From: a virus
Lineage: Duplodnaviria; Heunggongvirae; Uroviricota; Caudoviricetes
Reading direction: 5' to 3' (one strand)
Length of the DNA: 64,000 bases
IMG/VR virus record: IMGVR_UViG_3300010356_001624
Location: 1-64,000 of that record
Shown here: positions 3,039-33,848 of the stretch, piece by piece
Layout: each line of letters starts with the position of its first letter
Numbering within the stretch: the stretch's first letter is position 1
Notes under the pieces: generated by a model
Told to the model about the DNA's origin: nothing
The model's input: the letters and a program-made list of their open reading frames with translations, nothing else
Database searches by the model: none
Position numbers and translations under genes: made by a program

Positions 3039-3103
3039 AACAAACAATTGAAATACGTTTCAATCTTTTTTATTCATAAAAGTATTTATAATAAACTGAT
3101 TTT

Positions 3104-5122: not shown

Positions 5123-5202
5123 TACTATTTATTAATGTTATTTAATGTTTTTTCATTATTTAAAAGTATTTATAAAAAATTATAATTAATTATAAAATAT
5201 TT

Positions 5203-7209
5203 ATGGATTCAAAAAAAGAAAGGGGTACTATATATCAACAATTAAACAAGTTGTTTAATTTTGATGGTTTTGGTTTTGATAATACTGAAATATCTAACTC
5301 TGATAAAAATCCCAAAATAATAATTAAAGGGGCTTCACCTACAGATGTTCATAGAAAAGGACTTGAAATTGCACAAAAAAAAGAACTACAAAATAAATTT
5401 TTTAGAACAACTGAAAGGGGATTTCAAAAAGCATTACAATATGAAGCAGCAAGACTTCCAGCATATTTAGATTATGAAGGTATGGAATATTATCCAATAA
5501 TTTCAAGTGCATTGGATTTATTCATGGAAGAAGCAACAACAATTGGTATAAACGGAAAAATGTTAAACATATATTCAAATAAAGAAAGAATAAAGTTAAT
5601 ATTAGATGAATTTTTTTATGATATTGTAAATGTTAATGTAAACTTGCCATTTTGGGTTAGAAATTTAGTTAAATATGGTGATAATTTTGTTTTACTATAT
5701 GGTGAACGTAAACATGGTATTTCACATATAAAACAATTAGTTAATTATGACATTGAACGATTTGATAGAATACAAAACAATAAACCAATTGTTAAATTTA
5801 AAGAAAGAACAACTGGTGATGAATTTAATATTTTTGAAATTGCACACTTTAGATTATTAGGTGACGATAAGTATTTGCCTTATGGTTCTTCTGTTCTTAA
5901 TAAAGTACGTAGGGTTTTCAGACAATTAGTTATGGCTGAAGATGCAATGTTAACTTATCGTATAATTAGAGCAGGTGAAAAAAAGGTGTTTAAAATTGAT
6001 GTTGGTAATATGGATGATAATGATGTTGAGGATTATATGTATAAAGTTGCCACTAAATTTAAAAAAATGACACGTGTAAATCCAAATGATGGACAAATTG
6101 ATTATAGTTTTAATATACTTGGAAATGATGAAGACTATTTTTTACCTGTAAGAAATTCTAATGTTCAAACAGGTATTGAAACCCTACCAGGAGCATCTAA
6201 TCTTGACCAAATTCAAGATATTGAATATTTAAGAGATAATTTATTTGTGGGATTGGGGATTCCAAAACCATTTTTATCATTTCAAGATGCTGCGGGTGCT
6301 GGTAAAAATATGGCACAATATGATATTAGATTTGCAAAAAAAATAAATAGAATTCAACAGGCAATAATTCAAGAATTAAATAAAATGGCAATTATCCATT
6401 TATATTTAATGGGTTATAGTGGTGATGATTTAAATTCTTTCACTCTAACATTAACAAATCCAAGTACACAACAAGAATTATTAAAATCAGAATTATTACG
6501 TGATAAAGCACAAACATATAGCGAATTAACAAGAGGTGAAAATGGTATTGCTGCAATGTCGCATACAAACGCAAAAAGAAAAATATGGAATATGAGTGAT
6601 AGTGAAATTGTTGAAGACCTTAAACAACAAAAATTAGAAAGAGTTATTATGCAAGAATTACAAGACGCATCTGTTTTAATTAAAAAAACTGGTCTTTTTG
6701 CAGATATTGATAAAAAATTTGGTGAACCTATGGATAATTTACCACCAACATCTAGTAACACTGAAAATATGTCAATGGGTGGAAATGATATGAGTGGAAT
6801 GGACATGGGTGGTGGTAATATGGGTGGAATGGACATGGGTGGTGGTAATATGGGTGGAATGGACATGGGTGGTGGTAATATGGGTGGAATGGACATGGGT
6901 GGTGGTAATATGCCAATGGGTGGAAATGATATGGGTGGAATGAATATGATGGAAAACAAATATGATAAAAACCTATTTGAAAAATATGTAAATAATTTAG
7001 TTTATGGTGATGAAAAAAACGAAAAAAATAATAATATAAAGAAAAAAATTATCGCCGAAAACACAAAATTAAACAATAATTTAAATTTAAAAGCAAAAAA
7101 TATGATTGAAGAAATTAATGTTTTTTTAGATAAACAAGAAGAAATTATTGATAATAATGATGATGATATTTTAAATGTAAATATTGATAATATTGAATTA
7201 TTAGAATAA
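5203..7209 (+). CDS. portal protein (gp20-like) with a C-terminal Gly/Met-rich decapeptide repeat
   Basis: 668-aa ORF immediately downstream of the terminase, the conserved position for a portal. Protein-level similarity to T4 gp20 was not directly verified. C-terminus carries MGGMDMGGGN x4. Confidence 0.75.
   Translation: MDSKKERGTIYQQLNKLFNFDGFGFDNTEISNSDKNPKIIIKGASPTDVHRKGLEIAQKKELQNKFFRTTERGFQKALQYEAARLPAYLDYEGMEYYPIISSALDLFMEEATTIGINGKMLNIYSNKERIKLILDEFFYDIVNVNVNLPFWVRNLVKYGDNFVLLYGERKHGISHIKQLVNYDIERFDRIQNNKPIVKFKERTTGDEFNIFEIAHFRLLGDDKYLPYGSSVLNKVRRVFRQLVMAEDAMLTYRIIRAGEKKVFKIDVGNMDDNDVEDYMYKVATKFKKMTRVNPNDGQIDYSFNILGNDEDYFLPVRNSNVQTGIETLPGASNLDQIQDIEYLRDNLFVGLGIPKPFLSFQDAAGAGKNMAQYDIRFAKKINRIQQAIIQELNKMAIIHLYLMGYSGDDLNSFTLTLTNPSTQQELLKSELLRDKAQTYSELTRGENGIAAMSHTNAKRKIWNMSDSEIVEDLKQQKLERVIMQELQDASVLIKKTGLFADIDKKFGEPMDNLPPTSSNTENMSMGGNDMSGMDMGGGNMGGMDMGGGNMGGMDMGGGNMGGMDMGGGNMPMGGNDMGGMNMMENKYDKNLFEKYVNNLVYGDEKNEKNNNIKKKIIAENTKLNNNLNLKAKNMIEEINVFLDKQEEIIDNNDDDILNVNIDNIELLE
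6781..6955 (+). repeat. 30-bp in-frame tandem repeat (atgggtggaatggacatgggtggtggtaat, about 4.5 copies)
   Basis: Near-perfect repeats seen directly in the sequence, coding (MGGMDMGGGN)n. Confidence 0.85.
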
Positions 7210-13334: not shown

Positions 13335-13409
13335 TAAATTTTAATATAAATACACTGTTTTTATTTTACTTTAATTGGGTTTTAACTATTTATTATTAAA
13401 AATAGAAAG

Positions 13410-18124: not shown

Positions 18125-19582
18125 ATGGAAGCACACCAACATAAAATTAGAATAAAAAAATCAAAAGAAGAAATATTAGATTTTAATTATAAAAACATTT
18201 CTTTAGATAATACAGAAATTAAATTAATTGATAAAAACACTGCAAGTAAAATTATAATAGAATATGAATGGTTAAAAACAATGCCATATATTGTTAAATA
18301 TTGTTTTGGTATATATTTTAATACAGAAAATGGTCAAAAACTAGGTGGTGTTTTAGTTTTTAGTAATGATTATACAGAAAATACTGGTGTTTGGGATAAA
18401 TATGGATTTACAAATAAAATTTTATTATTAAGCAGGGGTGTTTGTTTATGGTGGACACCAAAAAATACAGCATCTTTTTTTATTTCTAGGGTTTGTAAAT
18501 GGTTAAAAAATAATACAAAATATAGAATAATAACAGCAACTGTTGACCCAGCAGCAGGTGAAATCGGAACAATTTATCAATCATTAAATTGGTTATATGT
18601 TGGTGTTATGTCTGGTAATTATTCCAATAATAAAGAAACAAAAAGATTTTCAGTATTAATTGATGGTAAATTAAGATATAGTAGATGGGTTAGAAATAAA
18701 TTGGGTACGATGAAAAAAAATGTTATTTTAAAACACTATCCCAATGCAATATTTTTACCACAATATAGAAAACATAGATATTTTTATTTTATAGACACAC
18801 CAAGAAATAATAAAAAACATAAAACATCTATAAATCATTTAATATTACCATATCCTAAAAGAAATGATGAAATTATTGGCGTTATTTATAAAATAAAAAA
18901 CAAAATAAACAACAAATTATATATTGGACAAACAATTCGTTCAATAAATGAAAAAATATTAGAATATAAAAATGGTTTGGGTAATGATTATATTAATAAT
19001 GCATTCAATAAGTATGGTTGGGATAATTTTGAATTTACAATAATTGATACGGCAAAAACAATTCAAGAACTAAACAATAAAGAAATTAAATATATTAGTG
19101 ATTATAAATCAAACCAAAAAGAATTTGGTTATAATATTGAAGGTGGTGGTAAAAATATAATACCAACAAAAGAAACTTTAGATAAAATGTCTATTTCTCA
19201 TTTAGGTATTAAACAATCTAAAGAATGGATTAATAAAAGAATTTCAAAAGCAGGTAGTAATGATGCAAAAAAATACGGTAGAAAAAAAACAAAGCAAGAT
19301 AAATTAATTTTAAGTAAAAATTCTTCTAAATATTGGTTAGGTAAAAACCATACAGAAGAAACTAAACAAAAAATTAGTAAAACAAAAAAACAAATTGGAT
19401 TGTCTGAAAAACAAAAAGAAATAATTTGCAAAAAGGTATTTAAAGTTAATTTAAAAACTAATGAAATTATTGAATTTGAATCAACAAAAAAGGCGAGTGT
19501 TTTTGAAAATGTTAATCAATCCACAATATCAAGATGGTGTAAAAATGAAAAAAGAGTAAATGGTTATTTATGGAAAAATTAA
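18125..19582 (+). CDS. GIY-YIG homing endonuclease with NUMOD3-like repeats, fused in-frame to a ~230-aa N-terminal domain of unknown function
   Basis: GVIYKIKNK...KLYIGQT...R...AFNKYGWDNFEF...KEIKYIS...GYNIEGGG is the GIY-YIG motif set of I-TevI/Seg-like enzymes. KISKTKKQIG and SISHLGIK resemble NUMOD3 repeats. The C-terminus reads ISRWCKNEK. Confidence 0.85.
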   Translation: MEAHQHKIRIKKSKEEILDFNYKNISLDNTEIKLIDKNTASKIIIEYEWLKTMPYIVKYCFGIYFNTENGQKLGGVLVFSNDYTENTGVWDKYGFTNKILLLSRGVCLWWTPKNTASFFISRVCKWLKNNTKYRIITATVDPAAGEIGTIYQSLNWLYVGVMSGNYSNNKETKRFSVLIDGKLRYSRWVRNKLGTMKKNVILKHYPNAIFLPQYRKHRYFYFIDTPRNNKKHKTSINHLILPYPKRNDEIIGVIYKIKNKINNKLYIGQTIRSINEKILEYKNGLGNDYINNAFNKYGWDNFEFTIIDTAKTIQELNNKEIKYISDYKSNQKEFGYNIEGGGKNIIPTKETLDKMSISHLGIKQSKEWINKRISKAGSNDAKKYGRKKTKQDKLILSKNSSKYWLGKNHTEETKQKISKTKKQIGLSEKQKEIICKKVFKVNLKTNEIIEFESTKKASVFENVNQSTISRWCKNEKRVNGYLWKN

Positions 19583-23910: not shown

Positions 23911-25032
23911 ATGGCACTTATATCAACAACAGAAAAAAATAAACTTTATTTAAAAGTTAAACATGTTTTAGGATATCCATTAAGACCTTTTGAAATAACT
24001 AATGAAATGATGGATTCATATCTTGAAATTGTTATTGAAGATTATTCTTCGTTAGTTAATAATTGGTTAATTAAACAACAATGGGTTAGTTTGGAAGGAT
24101 TAAATAGGGAAAATAGTGATTTTTTGGCTGCATTTACTCATAAATCCAATGCATATATGAAAAGTTTTACATATGCTTATTCTAAACAATTGGGATTAGG
24201 TACAAATGCACCAGGAGCAAAAGGTTGGGAATTAAAAAGAGATTTTATTATAACTGAAGAAAACACACAACACTATTTAATACCTAAAGGTCGTGAAGTT
24301 AATGAAGTTTTATGGGAAACACCACCAATTATTGATGGTGGTCTAGTAGACCCATTTGCATTAAATGCTTGGAGTTCTGGATTAATGGGTATGTCTTATT
24401 TAGGTCGTCCTGCATTATATGTTCAACCAACATTTTCAACATTATTGGCAGCACAAGACCGTAGAATGAAACAAAGAGTATTACAATCAATTTTAACATA
24501 TAGAATTACAGGATTAGAAACTGGTGAAAAATTATTACATTTATATCCAGTACCAAATGATAGATATGAAATTGCAAATAGTTGGGGAAAACATTATGCT
24601 GGTAGAAAAGTATGGTATTGGTATTATGATACAAACAATGGTAAAGATAGAGATAGATGTCTTGAAGAAAATGATGATGTCGTAAGATTACCATCAGACC
24701 CACCAACAAAAGTATTAAAATGGGAAGATATGAATGATGTTGCACAACAACAAATAAGAAATTTATTAATTGCTCAAGTGAAAATTGTTATTGGTGGTGT
24801 TAGAGGATTTTATAGTGGTGAATTGGGTGTTAGTGAAAAACAACTAACAATGGATTATCGTCATTTACTTGAAGAAGGTACAAAACTTAAAGAAGACACT
24901 GAAAGATTTATTATTGAACAATTGGATAAAATAAGTCAGGTTAATTTAACGGAAGAACGTGCGAAAATTGCAGAAAATGTTAATAGGGAACGTGGTTTTC
25001 AACCTTTACAATATCCTATTATTGTAATTTAA
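23911..25032 (+). CDS. hypothetical protein, possibly a virion structural protein
   Basis: 373-aa ORF with ordinary (not low-complexity) composition; no motif assignable. Confidence 0.45.
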   Translation: MALISTTEKNKLYLKVKHVLGYPLRPFEITNEMMDSYLEIVIEDYSSLVNNWLIKQQWVSLEGLNRENSDFLAAFTHKSNAYMKSFTYAYSKQLGLGTNAPGAKGWELKRDFIITEENTQHYLIPKGREVNEVLWETPPIIDGGLVDPFALNAWSSGLMGMSYLGRPALYVQPTFSTLLAAQDRRMKQRVLQSILTYRITGLETGEKLLHLYPVPNDRYEIANSWGKHYAGRKVWYWYYDTNNGKDRDRCLEENDDVVRLPSDPPTKVLKWEDMNDVAQQQIRNLLIAQVKIVIGGVRGFYSGELGVSEKQLTMDYRHLLEEGTKLKEDTERFIIEQLDKISQVNLTEERAKIAENVNRERGFQPLQYPIIVI

Positions 25033-25260
25033 GTTTGAATTTCATATTCCACAATCATAAATATGATAATAATTCAATGATGACATTATTTTTCTAAACT
25101 TTTTTTTATAAATAATTATCTATTATTATAATTCTCATTACCATATCTTTCTTTTTTTGTTTTTTTCATTTTAATAACATTTTCCCTATTTTTCATTGGA
25201 TTGTTTTCACCAAATTTTTTATATTTATCATTTGTATTTATATAAAAGATATTTTTTTAT

Positions 25261-25824
25261 ATGAAAAAAAGAAAACAATTTATTGACCTAGAATCAAATC
25301 GAATGGGTTTATTTATGAACAATAATTCATTTGATTTGGATATTATGTATGGTAGAAATTATTTACAAACAGATAATGCTCAAGAAATTATACTATATAA
25401 AATAAATGTTATTGAAAGTAAAACACATGACCTTTATGGTCAAGCAAAAGCAAAAGATAAAAAATATTTACCACCAGTAAGATTGTCCGTTATGGTTAAT
25501 GTTGAACAAAGTAAGCAAGAATATTATGGTAATAATCAAAGCGGTATTGTTCGTGATGATACGGGTAGTTTGATTTTTGGTGTTTATTTAAAAGAATTGG
25601 AAGATAAAAAAATTGATATTGATAGGGGCGATATTGTTATGTATAACATGAGTGGTGAAAAAAATAGATTTTATGAAGTTGAAAATGCTAATAATGTTAC
25701 CGATGAAACAACTAAAACAATTGGTGGATTTAAACCATATTGGAAACGTGTAACGGCAGTTCCAGTGCGTAGTGATGTTGTCGCATTATTCGAAGGTGGT
25801 GAACATGGAGAATTTAGAGTTTAA
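25261..25824 (+). CDS. hypothetical protein
   Basis: ORF only. Confidence 0.4.
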   Translation: MKKRKQFIDLESNRMGLFMNNNSFDLDIMYGRNYLQTDNAQEIILYKINVIESKTHDLYGQAKAKDKKYLPPVRLSVMVNVEQSKQEYYGNNQSGIVRDDTGSLIFGVYLKELEDKKIDIDRGDIVMYNMSGEKNRFYEVENANNVTDETTKTIGGFKPYWKRVTAVPVRSDVVALFEGGEHGEFRV

Positions 25825-26329
25825 TTTTATTTTTTATAAATCTTCTCCAAATAAATGAATAAAATGGTTGCCAATCGTTAAACTCAACAATACAAATCTC
25901 ACCATTTTTTAATGTTTTATTTTCTTTATCATCACAATATTTATATTTTTCAACATCATTCCAATATATTCTATAAAAATCATCATCCGTTTCAAAAGAA
26001 AGCGAATGATTTAATTTTTCAATATGATTAAAATTTTTTTGAATAAAATTATCTCTACAATCTATTGCAAATAAACTATTAAATGTTGGTGATGATTTAA
26101 TAAATAACGAAAAATTATTACCGTAATCTTTTCTTGCTATTAAATTTAGTGCCTTCCAATATGTTCTAGGTAATTCATAATCCCATTCTTTTTGTGTTGT
26201 GGCATATTCATATTCAATTTTACATATCAATTTCTTTTTTCTATCACCACTAATTTGTATTAATATAATATCGTTTTTATTGTATTGATTTTCACATTGA
26301 ATTTCAAAAAAAAATACCACATTTAACAA
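25814..26329 (-). CDS. hypothetical protein
   Basis: ORF only. Confidence 0.35.
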   Translation of the reverse strand: MLNVVFFFEIQCENQYNKNDIILIQISGDRKKKLICKIEYEYATTQKEWDYELPRTYWKALNLIARKDYGNNFSLFIKSSPTFNSLFAIDCRDNFIQKNFNHIEKLNHSLSFETDDDFYRIYWNDVEKYKYCDDKENKTLKNGEICIVEFNDWQPFYSFIWRRFIKNKIKL

Positions 26330-26412
26330 AAAAAAGTGGCATGTTTTTATTCAAATAATGACACATTATAAATTCATTTTGATGATTAATTTTATAATAT
26401 TCATCAACCGCA

Positions 26413-26670
26413 TTATAATTTTTCCCCATTATTTAACAAATGTTTATTCTTAATTTTATTCAATTCTTCTGATAATATTTTGTGTTGGTCTTCTGATTGA
26501 ATACCTAAATCATCACCAAATTCAATGAAAATATCAATAACAAATTTAATATATTCTTTTTCTTTATTAGATAAATAAATGCTTTTTTTTATAAAAAGAA
26601 ATAATCCTATTGAAAGAAATAGAATTATTAATATTAATAAAATAATTAATATAATGCATATTATTGTCAT
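26413..26670 (-). CDS. small membrane protein with an N-terminal transmembrane helix
   Basis: MTIICIILIILLILIILFLSIGLFLFI is a hydrophobic N-terminus. Confidence 0.4.
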   Translation of the reverse strand: MTIICIILIILLILIILFLSIGLFLFIKKSIYLSNKEKEYIKFVIDIFIEFGDDLGIQSEDQHKILSEELNKIKNKHLLNNGEKL

Positions 26671-26694
26671 TCATTAAATTAATTCAAATTTTAA

Positions 26695-27765
26695 TTACTT
26701 TTTTTGGTCTTTAGATAATCCAACAAACAATTCAAAATTTATTTTAGAATGTGATTGATAATTTACCAATTCAAAATCATCAATTGTTAAATTTGTTATA
26801 TCTTCAAGTGTGTTTAAATTTTTATTAATTTTCATTTTCGGTAATTCAAAGGGCTTTCTTTTTGTTTGATTTTTAATATTTTCAATATGATTAAGATAAA
26901 TATGTGTACATCCACCAATCCATATAGCAACACTTGGAATCATATTACATGCTTTTGCCATTAACATTAATAATAAACTCATTGATGCTAAATTATATGG
27001 AACACCAAGCGCAACATCACATGAACGTTGATACATGTTTAAATCAAGATAAAATTTGGGTATGTTATTTGTTTCCAATAAATCTAAATTTGTTTCAAAT
27101 AACATTTTTGGTAATTTTAATTCTTTTACTGCATATTTAATGCGTTCTTTTTTCGTTAATGGTCTTACAATAAAATGATAAAGTAAATGACAAGGTGGTA
27201 ATGCCATGTTATTAAAATCAGATTTATTCCAAGCATTTATAATATGATAACGACTATATGGATTATTTTTTAAACCATCAATAACATCTTTAACTTGGTC
27301 AATACCATTTTGATTTCTCCATTGATAACCATAAACTTTATCCAAATCACCATATGTATATGTTACATATCTTTCATATGGATGTTCTTTAGTTGGGTTT
27401 GGGTTATTAACTTTTGTTTTTTTTCCTCTTTTTACATTATCAATAAATTCATCAAAAGATATTATAGGTGCGCCTAATTTAACATATTTATCATTATACC
27501 ACCTATAGGCATCATCATTCCATATGTTAACATTATTATTAACTAAATATTTAATATTGGTATCACCACGTAAAAACCATAATAATTCATGTACAATACC
27601 CTTCCAATACATTTTTTTTGTTGTTAGTAATGGAAATCCGTTTTTCAAATCCATTTTTATAGAACTTTTTGAAATTTCTAAAGTGTTTGGCATATTAGCC
27701 CTACCACTTTCTTTTTCAACACCATTTTTTAAAATATTATTAACTAAATTTATATATTGTTTCAT
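26695..27765 (-). CDS. thyA: thymidylate synthase family protein (ThyA-like, long-insert type)
   Basis: GFPLLTTKK, HELLWFLRGDTN, LPPCHLLYHF, QRSCDVALGVPYNLAS and GGCTHIY match the ThyA signature motifs, including the catalytic Cys in the PCH motif and the Asn in PYN. Confidence 0.88.
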   Translation of the reverse strand: MKQYINLVNNILKNGVEKESGRANMPNTLEISKSSIKMDLKNGFPLLTTKKMYWKGIVHELLWFLRGDTNIKYLVNNNVNIWNDDAYRWYNDKYVKLGAPIISFDEFIDNVKRGKKTKVNNPNPTKEHPYERYVTYTYGDLDKVYGYQWRNQNGIDQVKDVIDGLKNNPYSRYHIINAWNKSDFNNMALPPCHLLYHFIVRPLTKKERIKYAVKELKLPKMLFETNLDLLETNNIPKFYLDLNMYQRSCDVALGVPYNLASMSLLLMLMAKACNMIPSVAIWIGGCTHIYLNHIENIKNQTKRKPFELPKMKINKNLNTLEDITNLTIDDFELVNYQSHSKINFELFVGLSKDQKK

Positions 27766-27791
27766 GCTTTTATTTTTTTTGTTTTATGTTT

Positions 27792-28265
27792 TTATTTACC
27801 CGTACTACCAAAACCACCCCTATCTTTTGAATTTAATTTATCAACTTCAATAAATTCAATTTTATTATCAAAAATCCATTTAAGTTTAGCCCACCAAGGT
27901 GCTTTCATTGTAGGTCTTATTTCAAACTGACAAATTCTATCACCAGTTGATATTTTTGTTGACCTTAATGCAATAGCACTAAATTTCCAAATATCGTTAT
28001 TACCCGAATAACCATCCGTGTGTTTATCAGGACCGTCAACCACTCCGTAATGATTTCCTTGAATTACACCGAATTTAGAAAAAGTTCCACTTCTAGGAAC
28101 AACACTACCCTGATAATATTTTGGTAATTTCATTGATACTCCCAATGGTATTAATGCATGTTCAAATTCATTTAATTCAATATCAATTGATGATTTTAAA
28201 TCAAACCAATTACCATGTGATTCAATTTTACAATTAGGATTATGATATTTGATTAAAATTTTCAT
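27792..28265 (-). CDS. dut: dUTPase (trimeric dUTP diphosphatase-like). The start is probably the internal Met at 28265; the track ORF extends to 28361.
   Basis: VVPRSGTFSKFGV...GVVDGPDKHTDGYSG resembles dUTPase motifs 2 and 3. MKILIKYH is the likelier start because the upstream part overlaps the gene at 28270-28491. Confidence 0.75.
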   Translation of the reverse strand: MKILIKYHNPNCKIESHGNWFDLKSSIDIELNEFEHALIPLGVSMKLPKYYQGSVVPRSGTFSKFGVIQGNHYGVVDGPDKHTDGYSGNNDIWKFSAIALRSTKISTGDRICQFEIRPTMKAPWWAKLKWIFDNKIEFIEVDKLNSKDRGGFGSTGK

Positions 28266-28269
28266 AATT

Positions 28270-28491
28270 TTATTTATCTTTTGTTTTATAACCTTTAAGA
28301 AAAAACATTTTAAATGGAATAAAAGACTTAATAAAATTATTATTTTTTTCAAAAAATTCACTTCTTTGAAATATTGTTATTATTACAATAAGATAATAAA
28401 CAAATAAAATAATTATAATTCCAAAAATAATTAAACTTATCATGGCTTTATTTTTTTTTTTTATTAAATTAAATATTAAAAAATTATTCAC
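28270..28491 (-). CDS. small membrane protein, possibly an NfeD-like partner of the SPFH protein
   Basis: 73 aa with a hydrophobic stretch MISLIIFGIIIILFVYYLIVIITIF, directly downstream of the SPFH gene in the same operon. Confidence 0.4.
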   Translation of the reverse strand: MNNFLIFNLIKKKNKAMISLIIFGIIIILFVYYLIVIITIFQRSEFFEKNNNFIKSFIPFKMFFLKGYKTKDK

Positions 28492-28512
28492 TTCCCTTAT
28501 TTTATTGTTTGT

Positions 28513-29742
28513 TTATTTGTTTTTATTCAAATCTTCCATCTTTTTCATAACATCCAATCCCATGCTAACACCAATCATATCCATTGGATTTGCACCACCT
28601 TTACCTTCATTTCCCACAATAATCATTGTTGGTACTTTAATTTTAGCAAGTTCAGTTGCAACACCAACTTTTGTTTTATATTCCCATTCAACACGTTCTT
28701 GTGGTGTAAGTCCTGCGGAAACCTTAAGTCTTGCTGCTTCTGCTTCACCTTGACCCTTTGAAATTAATGCTTTACGTTCTTCTTCTGCTTCTTTTGCCTT
28801 AAACATTGCTACTTTATATGCTTTTTCTGCATTAAGTTCTGCGACTTCTTTTTCTTTCTGTGCAATTGTCACTTGTTTAATTTTATCAACTTCTTGGTCT
28901 GCTTTTTCTTTAGCAATTCGTGTTTCACCTTTGGCTTTTTCTGTAATAGCATCTTGTTGTGCTTTTTGTGCATCCTTTCTTGAATCAATTAATGCTATTA
29001 ATTTATCATCAAAATCCATATCCTTAATATTAAATTGTGGTAAAGTGATATCATATTTACCAAGCAACGATTCTTTCATTATTATAGGTTTTCCTGTAGT
29101 ATCTCTATTTACACTATAATGTTTAATTTCTTGATTTTGACCTGCTGAATTTGTAATAAATTCACTTCTTACTTTAGATTCATATAAACCAAATAATGCT
29201 TGTTCTTTCGATAATCGAATAAATTCAGAACGTTTATTGGAATATGCTTCTTCAGCAGACATTAATGTGGCAGTATTTTTTAATGCTTCCGTAATTTGTT
29301 GTTTAATCATATACTGAAGATTAGAATTATTACCATATTTAATATGAAGTTCAATTTGAATTTCTGGAACTAATGGTATTTCATATAAACCAACAAAATC
29401 AATATCGGCATAACCATTCGGAAATAGTACACGTTCAGGTTTAATTTCTCTATTAGTAAGACTTTTATCACCCTTTTCTTTACTTAATATTACATCATCA
29501 GTAATTCGATATGTAGTAATTTTTCCAAAATTTTGCATATAAGTACCAGGTGTATTTCTAACACTCAACTTACCACTAATTAATGATTGTTTAACTTGAT
29601 AATATCCTGCATTGTTTGTTTCAAATAGTTTAAAAATTGCAATAAGAATTAATGCAGAAATTACAACAAGTGATGTAATCATCATAATTGAACGAGATTT
29701 CATAGCGTTCATTTTTGTTTGATTTTCATTTCTTCTTTCCAT
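28513..29742 (-). CDS. SPFH/band-7 (prohibitin/HflKC-like) membrane protein
   Basis: N-terminal transmembrane segment (IMMITSLVVISALILIAIF), a band-7-like core, and a C-terminal coiled-coil (AEKAYKVAMFKAKEAEEERKALISKGQGEAEAARLK) typical of the HflK/prohibitin family. Confidence 0.75.
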   Translation of the reverse strand: MERRNENQTKMNAMKSRSIMMITSLVVISALILIAIFKLFETNNAGYYQVKQSLISGKLSVRNTPGTYMQNFGKITTYRITDDVILSKEKGDKSLTNREIKPERVLFPNGYADIDFVGLYEIPLVPEIQIELHIKYGNNSNLQYMIKQQITEALKNTATLMSAEEAYSNKRSEFIRLSKEQALFGLYESKVRSEFITNSAGQNQEIKHYSVNRDTTGKPIIMKESLLGKYDITLPQFNIKDMDFDDKLIALIDSRKDAQKAQQDAITEKAKGETRIAKEKADQEVDKIKQVTIAQKEKEVAELNAEKAYKVAMFKAKEAEEERKALISKGQGEAEAARLKVSAGLTPQERVEWEYKTKVGVATELAKIKVPTMIIVGNEGKGGANPMDMIGVSMGLDVMKKMEDLNKNK

Positions 29743-29761
29743 TTCTTTATAATTTTAATAG

Positions 29762-30067
29762 TTAAAAATTTTTTGTTAAATTATCTAAATTATTAAAAAT
29801 TTCATTTATTTTATTTTCAGTAATATCTTCATTATTTAAACGTTCAAAATATTCATTATCAATATCTTCATTAAACTTTATCAGTTCATCTATCTTTGAT
29901 AATGCAAATTTTGCTTGTGTACCATTGTCTATTATAATTTTTCTATCTTTAAATTTTGAATCACTTGATGGTAATTTATAATTTTCTTCATCGGAATAAA
30001 ATTCAAGTATTTTCTTAACTAAAAGAAATAAATTATCATATTGTTCAATTGTGATATTATTCATCAT
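29762..30067 (-). CDS. hypothetical acidic protein
   Basis: ORF only. Confidence 0.35.
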   Translation of the reverse strand: MMNNITIEQYDNLFLLVKKILEFYSDEENYKLPSSDSKFKDRKIIIDNGTQAKFALSKIDELIKFNEDIDNEYFERLNNEDITENKINEIFNNLDNLTKNF

Positions 30068-30401
30068 CCAAAATTTGATTATTTTTTTTCCATTCTGAAA
30101 TTATTTTTTTTATTTCATCAATTTCATTGGGATATAGTTTATACTCTTTATATGTTGGATATTTTTCATTATTTCTTATATTACTATGAAAATATTTTCC
30201 TTGGGATTCTGCATTTTCAAAATCATCATAAATTTCTTGGGTTATGTTTAAATATGAATATGTATTTCCTTTATTAAAGACAATATAAAGTTTTTCACTT
30301 TTGGGAAAATATGTACTTTTTAATATATTTTGTGAATTATATATTGCATCAACATATCCAATTTCATTATTTTCTATATGTACCTTTTTTTCAACTAACA
30401 T
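30057..30401 (-). CDS. KTSC-domain protein
   Basis: LYIVFNKGNTYSYLNITQEIYDDFENAESQGKYFHSNIRNNEKY fits the KTSC pattern (G..Y.Y..V...vy..F..A.S.G.yF...I). Confidence 0.5.
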   Translation of the reverse strand: MLVEKKVHIENNEIGYVDAIYNSQNILKSTYFPKSEKLYIVFNKGNTYSYLNITQEIYDDFENAESQGKYFHSNIRNNEKYPTYKEYKLYPNEIDEIKKIISEWKKNNQILDDE

Positions 30402-30541
30402 GTTTTATTTTTTTTATACAAAGATATTTTTAATTTTATAAAAAACAAAATTTCAAAAAAATTTACATTAATATTATATAAATCCAATAAACATATAACC
30501 ATTATTAATAAAAAAATAAGTATTTATAAAAAAAACTAATA

Positions 30542-31306
30542 ATGGCACTTCCAAAAAAAAATAAAACAAAACTTGATATTCGACCACCAAAAATTGGTAG
30601 TGAATACCTTAAATATGGTATGGATAGAATTGAAGAATTGATGAATGCTACCGATATTAAAACGAATTATTTACCAAGAACAATTCTTTTAGAAGATATG
30701 GATAGGGGTATATTTAACCATATCAATTCAAAAAATCTTAAAATTGTGATTGATGGTAAAATAGTTCCCACATTCTATTTGGATAATGACAGATGGGGTG
30801 AATATAGTAAAACTTGGAAGTTTGTTGACGATGATAAAAACGTACCAACACCATATGTAACCATTAGAAGAATTAATAAAGAAATTGGTACTAGATTGGG
30901 TAATAAATATTTAGTGCCACAACTTCGTAAATTTAAGTATATGGATGTTCCAATACTTGATGAAGGAGAAGTAATCTATTTAAGATTTAAAATGCCAGAA
31001 CCCGTTAATGTTGATTTAACATATGAAGTTGTTTTATTCACCAAATATCGTGTTGATGTTAATCAGTATGATGAACAGGTGTTAAGAAATTTTGCATCAC
31101 GTCAAGACTATATCCATATTAATGGTAATCCTTTACCTTTACTTTTTGAAGGATTTACTGAATCAAACCCAATTGAAAATATTGATGGTGATAGATATTT
31201 TGTTTCTAAATACACATTAAAACTATTGGGCTATATTCGTGATGAAAAGGATTATGAAATTGTAAAAACCACAAGAAAACCAAGATTTACAACAACAATT
31301 ATATAA
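30542..31306 (+). CDS. hypothetical protein, possibly structural
   Basis: ORF only. Confidence 0.45.
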   Translation: MALPKKNKTKLDIRPPKIGSEYLKYGMDRIEELMNATDIKTNYLPRTILLEDMDRGIFNHINSKNLKIVIDGKIVPTFYLDNDRWGEYSKTWKFVDDDKNVPTPYVTIRRINKEIGTRLGNKYLVPQLRKFKYMDVPILDEGEVIYLRFKMPEPVNVDLTYEVVLFTKYRVDVNQYDEQVLRNFASRQDYIHINGNPLPLLFEGFTESNPIENIDGDRYFVSKYTLKLLGYIRDEKDYEIVKTTRKPRFTTTII

Positions 31307-31310
31307 TACA

Positions 31311-32111
31311 CTATTGTTCATTAGTATATGTTCCAGTATTAGGATTAAATTTATTCCCACCTTCTGGATATTTTTGTTGAATATAGTTAGTTTTATTAAA
31401 TGTATTATTAATTTTATCAACATATTGTGATTTTGGTAATTCATAGGCTTTAAATTCAGATAAAATTGGTGGTTGTGGTTTAAAGTACCATGTTTTTTCT
31501 TTTTTATTAAAAATAACATCAAAATACATTATTTCTTCAGTATTATTAATCAACTGATTATTATATTTTGCATAATTATAAAATAATGATAAAATACCCG
31601 TTTCTGCATTATAGAAACTTAACTTTAAAAAACAACCAAATTCGTTTTTTTCTTGTTTATTTATATATGATATTGGAACATCAAAAAAAGATAGTTGTGT
31701 ATCTTTTGTTGTTGTTATTATATATTTCGGTTTATTATCATTAGCATAGTCAATAAATTTTGTGAAATATGTTCTAAAAATTTTATTTTGTGTGTTGGAA
31801 TTAAAACTATCATAAAAATCAAATATAAAAAAACTATTTTGAATAAATTTTGTTTTATTATTTTCAAAAGGAAATTCGTTGTAGTGTGATGTTTTACCTT
31901 TGAAATAAAAATAAAATATTTGAGAACCACCAACATTAGATTTTTTAAATCTACAGACTTCTTCATCAATAATTGGATTAATTAAAGAATTACCTACATT
32001 TTCAACTAAATTATTCAATGAATTAATAATAATATCATTTTTAGAATTTAATTGAAAATTTATATTTAAATCTTTTCCTGAAAATTTTAATCTTTTTTTA
32101 TTTATAAGCAT
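31311..32111 (-). CDS. hypothetical protein
   Basis: ORF only. Confidence 0.4.
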   Translation of the reverse strand: MLINKKRLKFSGKDLNINFQLNSKNDIIINSLNNLVENVGNSLINPIIDEEVCRFKKSNVGGSQIFYFYFKGKTSHYNEFPFENNKTKFIQNSFFIFDFYDSFNSNTQNKIFRTYFTKFIDYANDNKPKYIITTTKDTQLSFFDVPISYINKQEKNEFGCFLKLSFYNAETGILSLFYNYAKYNNQLINNTEEIMYFDVIFNKKEKTWYFKPQPPILSEFKAYELPKSQYVDKINNTFNKTNYIQQKYPEGGNKFNPNTGTYTNEQ

Positions 32112-33739
32112 GGTTTTCCAATATCATCTAAATTATTTTTTGGTTTAATTGAAGTAATTTCACCGTTTTTTGTATACCAAAGTTCATCAAATATATTTTT
32201 TGTTGTAATATCATTTAAATCGGGTGTAACTGAAAATATTGTTGGTGTAAAAATATAATGATTATCATTTAAAAACGGATGGTCTACACCAATATTCGTT
32301 AATGGTTCAAAATAACCTTCTGGTAAAATTTCTCTCCAAATATATGTATTATTATTCAAAATATCAATTGCATGTTTTGGTATTTGTTCAATATTTTCAT
32401 ATATACTATCATTAGAACTAATACTATAAACATCACTGCTTAAATATCTTAATCTTATCGGTATAAATGGATTATATTTCCAAACTAATCTTATTTTTAA
32501 ATTATCTTCATTATAATGAAAAGTATATATATTGAATTTTTGTTCTAACAATAATTCTTGATTATAATTTTTTTTATCATATTTAACAATATCAGAAATA
32601 TATTCATTTTCATTATTAGTAACATAATCACCAATTGATAATAATTTACTGTTTAAAATTTTCATTTCATATTCATCATCTTCTTCATCATACATCCAAG
32701 TGCAAAATTTTAACAATTCTGAATCATTATTACCATTATTTGATTCTATATATTTAGCATATAAATATAATTCAGTTATTGGGTATTCATCATCTTTTGC
32801 AAAATCAGAAAGTTTAATTGTTTTATCAATATCCCAATAATAAATTTGTTCGTTATATACATTTTTTGAAAAACCAGCATTATGAATAGTAAAATCGTTA
32901 GGCGTTGCTAATACTTTAAATTTTCTTTTAATATTTTGAGAATCATTGTATAATTCAATTTTTATATAGTCTAAATAAACTTTTAGGGAATTACCTTTTA
33001 CTATAATAACTATTTTACGTATAGGATTTTCATTGTCAATATCACAAGTATATGTTTTTTCACCATCTTCTGTAAGAGAAACATTAAAATCTTTATAATT
33101 ATCATCATCAAATTTTAATAAAACCCTAAAACTATCATTTTCAACATTACCATATACAGTTGTTTTAGTTTTAAAAACCAAAGTACCATAGGATTCTATT
33201 ATGTTTTTTGTCATTTGAATCGTACCATTTTGTAACATACCACTAGGATGTACTATTAATTCTGCTTGATTTGCTAATGTTTGTGACATATAAGAATCTC
33301 CCTTAACAATAACATCCCATCCTCTTGGATAATCCGTTGGTTCTGATATTACCCAATCATCAAAATTTTCATCAATTAATATTTTTGGCTGTTCTTCTAC
33401 TTCATCTAAATTTAATTCTGGTTTAACTAAATAAAAATCAAATGAATTTAAAATATTTTTAGAATTATTTTCACTTGGTTTAAAAAAATCCTTTAATTCA
33501 TTATAACCAAATTTGAGGTTATTTAATAGCGAAATCCATTCAAATTTACCATAAAATCTATAATTATCACTATTTTCTCTTTCTTTTATATATTGTTCAC
33601 TAGAACTAATAGTTTTATGAACATCATATTCAACAATTTCAGATATTTCATTCGTTAATGATATATTATCATGCAAATCAGTATTTGTAGAATCTATATT
33701 TTTTTTATCACCCAATAATATTTTTACCTGTTTATCCAT
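32102..33739 (-). CDS. hypothetical protein, possibly a tail fibre or receptor-binding protein
   Basis: 545-aa ORF with no assignable motif. Confidence 0.45.
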   Translation of the reverse strand: MDKQVKILLGDKKNIDSTNTDLHDNISLTNEISEIVEYDVHKTISSSEQYIKERENSDNYRFYGKFEWISLLNNLKFGYNELKDFFKPSENNSKNILNSFDFYLVKPELNLDEVEEQPKILIDENFDDWVISEPTDYPRGWDVIVKGDSYMSQTLANQAELIVHPSGMLQNGTIQMTKNIIESYGTLVFKTKTTVYGNVENDSFRVLLKFDDDNYKDFNVSLTEDGEKTYTCDIDNENPIRKIVIIVKGNSLKVYLDYIKIELYNDSQNIKRKFKVLATPNDFTIHNAGFSKNVYNEQIYYWDIDKTIKLSDFAKDDEYPITELYLYAKYIESNNGNNDSELLKFCTWMYDEEDDEYEMKILNSKLLSIGDYVTNNENEYISDIVKYDKKNYNQELLLEQKFNIYTFHYNEDNLKIRLVWKYNPFIPIRLRYLSSDVYSISSNDSIYENIEQIPKHAIDILNNNTYIWREILPEGYFEPLTNIGVDHPFLNDNHYIFTPTIFSVTPDLNDITTKNIFDELWYTKNGEITSIKPKNNLDDIGKPCL

Positions 33740-33848
33740 AAAACACTTTCTGTTTATATAAATAGTTATTAAAATAATATAATATTTTGTAACATTTTTT
33801 TACTATTTTCGTATCACTAAATAAACTAACAAAAAAATATTTAAAGCC

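Follow-up and report, generated by a model that had tools for sequence, protein, structure and literature searches.

The 64,000-nucleotide (nt) stretch of DNA analysed here, hereafter the window, comprises positions 1 to 64,000 of the IMG/VR record IMGVR_UViG_3300010356_001624, a virus of the class Caudoviricetes. A run of closely spaced genes on its minus strand includes one encoding a 409-amino acid (aa) SPFH/band-7 scaffold protein (28513-29742) and, directly downstream of it, one encoding a single-pass membrane protein of 57 aa (28270-28443). Comparison with homologous loci suggests that the two genes represent a module, carried mainly by phages, in which an SPFH protein is paired with a small membrane protein that is not of the NfeD type, and that the window contains a rearranged example of this module. 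The pair is tentatively interpreted as a phage-made SPFH ring or cage with its own miniature partner, while the neighbouring thyA, dut, KTSC-domain and 101-aa genes appear to be unrelated to it.

The SPFH protein and its small membrane partner

The original prediction, made from the nucleotide sequence alone without database searches, had described the 409-aa product as an SPFH protein with an N-terminal transmembrane (TM) anchor and a long helix. Pfam and PHROG profiles and an AlphaFold2 (AF2) model bear this description out: the protein is a true, though divergent, member of the SPFH superfamily. The Band_7 core (PF01145) was found in it by a narrow margin (24.3 bits against a gathering (GA) cut-off of 23.6), while 44 of the 54 aligned homologs match Band_7 individually, the best of them with E=3.6e-16. 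Residues 22-392 match PHROG 11908, a functionally uncharacterised family of phage proteins, with E=3.6e-37, which defines the subfamily to which the protein belongs; a weak match to PHROG 200 (E=5e-6) was also obtained. No NCBIfam model, including the HflK/HflC models TIGR01933/TIGR01932, matched at E<=0.01, a sequence-profile search of the PDB returned nothing at E<=0.01, and a single-sequence search of the PDB gave marginal matches to prohibitins only.

The AF2 model, built on the homolog alignment, has a mean predicted local distance difference test score (pLDDT) of 84. It consists of an N-terminal helix (residues 4-39), with the hydrophobic segment of the TM anchor at aa ~15-44 (29611-29700), an SPFH body of beta-rich and helical elements (residues 40-245; 29008-29625), a single continuous helix of ~97 residues (residues 246-342; 28717-29007) and a glycine-rich C-terminus modelled with low confidence. 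The body contains a beta insertion of ~40 residues, so that 143 residues span 100 positions of the Band_7 model. A Foldseek search of the PDB retrieved HflK/C, including the HflK/C-FtsH complexes 7vhq, 7wi3 and 9cz2, erlin, prohibitin, QmcA-YbbJ, flotillin and stomatin with a probability of 1.00 and E-values of 1e-10 to 1e-6, as well as, with the same probability, the major vault protein; many viral Band-7 proteins were retrieved from BFVD. The protein has, as modelled, all the parts of a cage-forming SPFH protein, namely, an N-terminal anchor, an SPFH1/2 body, a wall helix about 100 residues long and, at the C-terminus, a cap region.

The small membrane protein had been predicted to be 73 aa long, which would require the alternative GTG start at 28491. 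Translation from the ATG at 28443 gives 57 aa, and this form is more likely because it is the one called in public assemblies and fits the family alignment described below. The partners of SPFH genes were surveyed in 155 loci, 148 of which contain enough sequence upstream of the SPFH gene, a small open reading frame (ORF) being defined as one of 35-140 aa with a TM segment, ending at most 250 nt upstream of the SPFH start. Such an ORF lies directly upstream of the SPFH gene in 99 of the 148 loci, compared with 12% for other genes of at least 200 aa in the same loci.

These upstream ORFs split into two families. Proteins of type A (70-100 aa), encoded directly upstream of SPFH, have an N-terminal TM segment followed by a K/R-rich juxtamembrane stretch and an acidic helical tail, and 56 of their 63 unique sequences link into one cluster. 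The hidden Markov model (HMM) of type A matched 66 ORFs in the upstream slot; its other significant matches (loci L072 and L092) were upstream ORFs too, and no significant off-target match was found. Type B proteins (55-75 aa), which include Gp92 of the phage crAss001, contain a TM segment with a YY motif, the motif (I/L)PF(Y/W)YW exactly 24 residues further on, and a basic C-terminus, and the type B HMM matches SPFH-adjacent ORFs only. Neither type has a match in Pfam, and no homology between them is detectable (hhalign probability 5%).

The 57-aa protein is a genuine SPFH partner and a divergent member of the type B family, as judged from profile and alignment. The type B HMM, built without the window ORF, matched it with E=1.3-1.9e-5 (about 1.5e-5) among ~12,600 ORFs, as its sole match in the 64-kb window and with zero off-target matches up to E=10. 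In the alignment the YY and IPF motifs are in register, while FYYW is replaced by FKMFF. Among the four closest relatives for which the genomic context was retrieved, with SPFH proteins 56-61% identical to that of the window, all four carry a type B ORF directly upstream of SPFH (E=1e-17 to 6e-5), two of these ORFs having been missed by gene callers. The non-redundant viral loci comprise 23 with type A upstream, seven with type B upstream, one with type B downstream (this window), eight with another small TM ORF and eight with none, a single locus having too little upstream sequence; a recognised partner is thus present in 31 of 47 and some small TM neighbour in 39 of 47. When the 57-aa protein was used as the query of a homolog search, nothing but the protein itself was retrieved. 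Strain variants gave no signal of selection on the small ORFs, because the strains are 99.95-100% identical.

The designation of the small protein as the partner of the SPFH gene in the original prediction is therefore borne out, as is the conservation of the pair in related phages, which that prediction had named as a matter to be checked. Two of its details are not: the gene does not occupy the usual partner position, which in the relatives is upstream rather than downstream of SPFH, and the protein does not belong to NfeD. The NfeD profile (PF01957) had no match at E<=0.1 in the 73-aa ORF and none at E<=1 in the 57-aa form or the other partners, and the stretch beyond the TM segment, ~30 residues long, is too short for the NfeD OB-fold. 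At the level of gene order, the SPFH gene is shown to be genetically coupled to a dedicated, very small single-pass membrane protein, and the arrangement in the window, with the partner downstream, is a local rearrangement of the conserved pair.

Additional small membrane-protein genes occur beside SPFH in several loci. Three of them lie in a row upstream of SPFH in locus L159 (4460-4973), a conserved protein of 59-61 aa with a C-terminal TM segment is encoded just downstream in L136, L142 and L146 (~6185-6380), and crAss001 carries Gp90 (L001 7203-7457). The SPFH module may hold more than two membrane components.

The subfamily is discrete and of medium size, and does not represent the bulk of HflK/C or stomatin proteins. 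A word-indexed search found at least 384 relatives of the window protein. When a profile was run exhaustively against 1.84 billion representatives of clusters at 50% identity, 1,617 clusters matched at E<=1e-3, of which 649 reached E<=1e-30. Among cultured phages, a tblastn search with the window protein detected the subfamily in only 36 of 50,697 records, which belong to crAss001 and its relatives (Gp91), T5-like Vibrio phages (Thalassa gp170), Vibrio phage CHOED and two Aeromonas phages. Gp91 of crAss001, annotated as an SPFH-domain/band7-family protein, is 27% identical to the window protein over 89% of the query (E=2e-19). In IMG/VR the subfamily is common on contigs of 40-360 kb, and it is found scattered in true bacterial chromosomes, for example those of Thiospirochaeta perfilievii, Oceanirhabdus and Cellvibrionaceae.

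Predicted topology and possible functions

The flank preceding the TM segment is more positively charged than the flank following it in 52 of 54 SPFH homologs (mean +2.8 versus -0.2). According to the positive-inside rule, this bias predicts an N-in/C-out orientation, with the SPFH body facing the periplasm in a type II topology like that of HflK/C. In both partner types the C-terminal side is basic, so that the orientation predicted for them is opposite to that of SPFH. HflK/C are oriented N-in/C-out, and QmcA is oriented in the opposite way. The solved SPFH proteins among the structural matches form a membrane ring or cage that encloses a patch of bilayer, and several of these assemblies hold a protease, namely, FtsH in the case of HflK/C (7vhq, 7wi3 and 9cz2), m-AAA proteases in the case of prohibitins, and an NfeD protease in the case of stomatin.

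The structural parts of the SPFH protein, together with its dedicated small partner, are accordingly read as those of a phage-made, outward-facing SPFH ring or cage. The two proteins, oppositely oriented, would meet through their TM helices, and during infection the ring or cage that they assemble would sit on the host cytoplasmic membrane, at its outer face, fencing off a membrane patch and a client within it. As a guess, the likeliest class of client would be a membrane protease such as FtsH, whose enclosure would alter the turnover of membrane or phage proteins. FtsH is the leading candidate on account of the structural matches and of three spirochaete genomes (L014 2581-6203, L021 and L020) in which ftsH lies directly before the SPFH locus: the order is ftsH - type A - SPFH in T. 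perfilievii and another spirochaete, whereas type A is missing from the third (ftsH - SPFH). The link is confined to one spirochaete lineage, was rejected as a general one and was not seen in the phage loci; FtsH is a weak lead, and the client step is given low weight.

Several points weigh against this interpretation. The Band_7 score of the window sequence alone is only marginally over the threshold, and the window partner reaches only ~24 bits with the type B HMM, has lost the FYYW motif and lies on the other side of the SPFH gene. About one third of the loci, mostly in spirochaete chromosomes, have no recognisable partner, and a single partner function is an assumption, since types A and B are not detectably related. 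Adjacency of ftsH is found in three of 80 genome loci, or one of 37 after de-duplication, and the other bacterial neighbourhoods vary. The oligomer, the contact with the partner and the topology are all inferred. A phage-made ring or cage with a dedicated mini-partner, to which the thyA, dut, KTSC and 101-aa genes are unrelated, is the preferred reading, with somewhat less than an even chance of being correct. The rival explanations of membrane maintenance, lysis timing and conflict each have less support. The roles put forward in the original prediction, namely, membrane remodelling, protection from premature lysis and countering of a host system, are hypothetical.

According to the first of these, which appears unlikely, a scaffold of the flotillin- or PspA-linked type would maintain the host membrane and the proton-motive force through a long infection without any specific client. 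The concentration of the subfamily in large contigs (100-360 kb) would suit this role, as would the matches of the fold to flotillin and stomatin cages and, as described in the literature, the action of bacterial SPFH proteins in membrane stress responses (PMC8581546, PMC11222466). However, the predicted outward orientation is unlike that of flotillin or YdjI-type scaffolds, the dedicated and tightly linked partner suggests a more specific complex, and no PspA-like gene was present among the flanking genes scanned.

The gene order of crAss001, where Gp92 (type B) and Gp91 (SPFH) are followed by Gp90 (a TM protein) and Gp89 (a peptidoglycan hydrolase), brings to mind a lysis-timing module, in which the small membrane proteins would behave like holins or antiholins and the SPFH ring would restrain them, or stabilise the membrane, until the right moment. 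The partners do resemble holins in their small size, one TM segment and charged C-termini, and in some loci SPFH is flanked on either side by a small TM gene. Yet the hydrolase of crAss001 is the only cell-wall hydrolase among 129 downstream genes of viral loci, profile searches recognised no lysis enzyme beside the window cluster, and the pair of SPFH and type A also occurs in bacterial chromosomes beside housekeeping genes, which makes this explanation quite improbable.

It is also quite unlikely that the pair serves in inter-phage or phage-host conflict, as a membrane complex that blocks the DNA entry of rivals (superinfection exclusion) or neutralises a membrane-bound defence effector of the host. 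The cluster lies in a variable accessory island between late-type gene blocks, the pair is located in the membrane and is outside the late class, and the surrounding genes are private ORFans, as is typical of conflict loci. The original prediction had also pointed to the defence islands in which bacterial SPFH/NfeD pairs appear; this connection gained nothing from PADLOC-DB v2, none of whose models matches the KTSC, 101-aa, SPFH, small TM or 85-aa protein. A full-text literature search found no paper joining SPFH with anti-phage defence, and the family is retained across very different phage types and bacterial chromosomes, which is broader than usual for conflict genes.

Finally, a canonical SPFH-NfeD pair recently captured from a host can practically be dismissed, although the order, with a small TM gene after SPFH, is reminiscent of qmcA-ybbJ, whose products the structural search also retrieved, since the partner has no NfeD match and no room for an OB-fold, the partner types have no Pfam match, and SPFH and its partner are conserved in many phages, which argues against a recent host pickup.

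The surrounding gene run and the phage

All seven ORFs listed in the original prediction are present on the minus strand between 26413 and 30401, and the same-strand run extends past 26413 into an eighth gene (25814-26429). Successive genes are separated by -11, 19, 69, 4, 26, 24 and -17 nt; strand and spacing suggest co-transcription. The assignments of the KTSC-domain protein, dUTPase and ThyA made in that prediction are confirmed by clear profile matches. The first gene of the run encodes the KTSC-domain protein (114 aa; 30057-30401), which matches PF13619 with 58 bits against a GA cut-off of 25 (E=8e-16). It is followed by the gene for an acidic soluble protein of 101 aa (29762-30067; net charge -8) with no TM segment, which fills the upstream slot where relatives carry the small membrane partner; this protein has no match in Pfam, PHROG, NCBIfam or PADLOC, and its homologs were found in the same phage only.

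Downstream of the SPFH gene and its partner, the dUTPase gene (27792-28265) starts 4 nt past the stop codon of the 57-aa gene and, according to gene calls, encodes 157 aa rather than 189; the product matches the Pfam family (E=1.5e-8, 34.9 bits), PHROG 135 (E=3.8e-24) and TIGR00576 (E=1e-16). The thymidylate synthase ThyA (356 aa; 26695-27765) matches Pfam Thymidylat_synt (E=2e-88, 296.5 bits), PHROG 160 (E=1.4e-98) and TIGR03284 (260.7 against a cut-off of 108). Its residues 2-347 span positions 1-265 of the 266 in the Pfam model, indicating ~80-90 aa of insertions. The next gene encodes a protein of 85 aa (26413-26670) with an N-terminal TM helix (aa 1-34) and an acidic tail, which has no match in Pfam or PHROG. 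It is similar in outline to type A partners and was considered as one, but rejected, as the type A HMM did not match it even at E<=50; the best match of this HMM among the window ORFs was an unrelated one (E=0.4). The last gene of the run encodes, in most strains, a protein of 204 aa, which has no Pfam match. In the window it is split into ORFs of 41 and 171 aa by a T9 instead of a T8 homopolymer at ~26306-26314; the window and L161 differ in this respect from L010, L160 and L163, which reflects either slippage-prone variation or an assembly error.

Homologs of the KTSC, 101-aa, ThyA and 85-aa genes adjoin SPFH only in copies of the same phage and in none of ~150 other loci, and weak dut matches were found ~2.5 kb from SPFH in one lineage of jumbo phages. 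A conserved link of SPFH to thyA, dut or KTSC was rejected, the association being confined to this phage species. The placement in a nucleotide-metabolism operon, which the original prediction had taken as a functional cue, is uninformative on function because the thyA/KTSC neighbourhood is seen only here. Pfam searches of 129 downstream genes of viral loci and 132 flanking genes of genome loci revealed no recurrent partner. Genes for ThyX, dCMP deaminase, dNMP kinase and HD proteins are found sporadically near SPFH homologs, as expected in accessory or early regions of large phages. A Clp protease, considered as a neighbouring NfeD-like protease, was discarded: it is present in five related loci of one lineage on the opposite strand, which indicates lineage synteny. 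The thyA, dut, KTSC and 101-aa genes are, on this comparison, unrelated accessory genes, apparently joined with SPFH in a tightly packed non-late unit only in this species.

Scans for sigma-70 promoters and terminators gave results at chance level in this DNA of 23% GC. The promoter of the minus-strand run should be located in the divergent intergenic region of 140 bp at 30402-30541, in which a single TATTTATA motif (30521-30528) faces the plus-strand gene starting at 30542. Of the 51 large ORFs of the window, 16 have this motif on the sense strand at a distance of 18-51 nt ahead of the start codon, among them those for terminase and portal and several unannotated genes flanking the cluster, and ~18 of its 43 occurrences in the window fall in the short stretches upstream of large ORFs (for example, 3083-3090, 5167-5174, 13345-13352, 30521-30528 and 33757-33764). 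It is a candidate late-promoter element, differing from the TATAAATA motif of T4. No sense-strand TATTTATA was found upstream of the SPFH cluster itself, which suggests that these genes do not belong to the late regulon. The flanking genes (23911-25824 and 30542-33739) have no Pfam or PHROG match and most of them are preceded by TATTTATA, so that the cluster looks like an accessory island between late-type genes.

The window, with a GC content of ~23%, encodes a T4-type terminase, a gp20-type portal, a gp23-type capsid protein and a sheath-like protein; the nearest relatives of the capsid protein, with ~31% identity, are those of Flavobacterium phage immuto and of uncultured huge phages. The exact 57-aa protein is indexed in 108 blocks of a public-assembly collection, the longest contig being 240 kb, indicating that the window comes from an uncultured phage that is widespread and whose genome measures at least 240 kb. 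Eight assemblies of this phage compared over the cluster are 99.95-100% identical, and megablast of the region against cultured phages gave no match. The NCBI entry for the 57-aa protein assigns it to an 'archaeon' metagenome-assembled genome, probably owing to a binning error.

Two further proteins of the window have composite matches. In the 485-aa product of the ORF immediately after the major capsid gene (18125-19582), a region resembling Mom-like DNA-modification proteins (PHROG 1384) is joined to one of the GIY-YIG/HNH homing-endonuclease type (PHROG 314). The 1056-aa protein encoded at 20158-23328 matches the helicase family PHROG 1967 over residues 363-1048 and has a weak terminase-large-subunit-like match over residues 14-257.

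Relation to known SPFH systems and significance

HflK/HflC of E. coli are the best structural matches of the window protein and share with it the order of domains, from the N-terminal TM segment through the SPFH1/2 body and long wall helix to the C-terminal cap; the orientation predicted for the window protein would also be the N-in/C-out one of HflK/C, and in one spirochaete lineage a homolog of the window protein is encoded directly after ftsH. The identity in structural alignments is, however, only 11-16%, with no HflK/HflC match in NCBIfam, and unlike HflK/HflC the window protein is the product of a single gene rather than a K/C pair, contains the ~40-residue beta insertion, has small-partner families of its own and is encoded by a phage. 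The Gp91/Gp92 pair of crAss001 belongs to the same SPFH subfamily and the same type B partner family as the window pair. In crAss001 the partner gene is upstream and the pair is followed by those for a TM protein and a peptidoglycan hydrolase, whereas the window has the partner on the downstream side, with dut and thyA as the neighbouring genes. SPFH-NfeD operons (QmcA-YbbJ, 8z5g; stomatin PH1511 - PH1510; FloA/FloT with NfeD) likewise link an SPFH gene tightly to that of a small membrane protein, but the window partner has neither an NfeD OB-fold nor a profile match to it, and the orientation of its SPFH protein is predicted to be opposite to that of QmcA and the flotillins.

Reports of SPFH genes in phages go back twenty years and describe their role as unclear; such genes include those for other Band_7 proteins such as the PHROG 200 'lipoprotein', ORFs of the T4-like phages 44RR, Aeh1 and RB43, and proteins of RaK2-like and Vi01-like phages and of Schitoviridae (PMC1524935, PMC7760394, PMC10892097, PMC13239085). 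These belong to a different subfamily, and none is among the 36 records detected by tblastn in the 50,697 searched. A 2009 survey of prokaryotic SPFH proteins described NfeD partners for subfamilies 1, 2 and 5, with phages unmentioned. In a full-text literature search of partial coverage, neither the two families of small partners unlike NfeD nor a coupling between them and this SPFH subfamily was found to have been described. What appears to be new is, therefore, the module itself, carried mainly by phages and combining SPFH with a non-NfeD partner, of which the window provides a rearranged example.

The analysis removes a misleading cue, the neighbourhood of thyA and dut being incidental, and turns a vague annotation of phage SPFH proteins into a testable two-gene module shared by very different phages. 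The pair is available in cultured systems, namely, Gp92/Gp91 of crAss001 and gp169/gp170 of Vibrio phage Thalassa. A broader proposition, which is doubtful at present, is that unrelated phages of the crAss-like, T5-like and T4-core jumbo types build a periplasm-facing SPFH cage with a mini-partner to capture or insulate an inner-membrane machine of the host, such as FtsH or a DNA-entry or defence component. If true, phages in general would have a hitherto undescribed means of keeping rivals out or of taking control of membrane proteostasis in the host.

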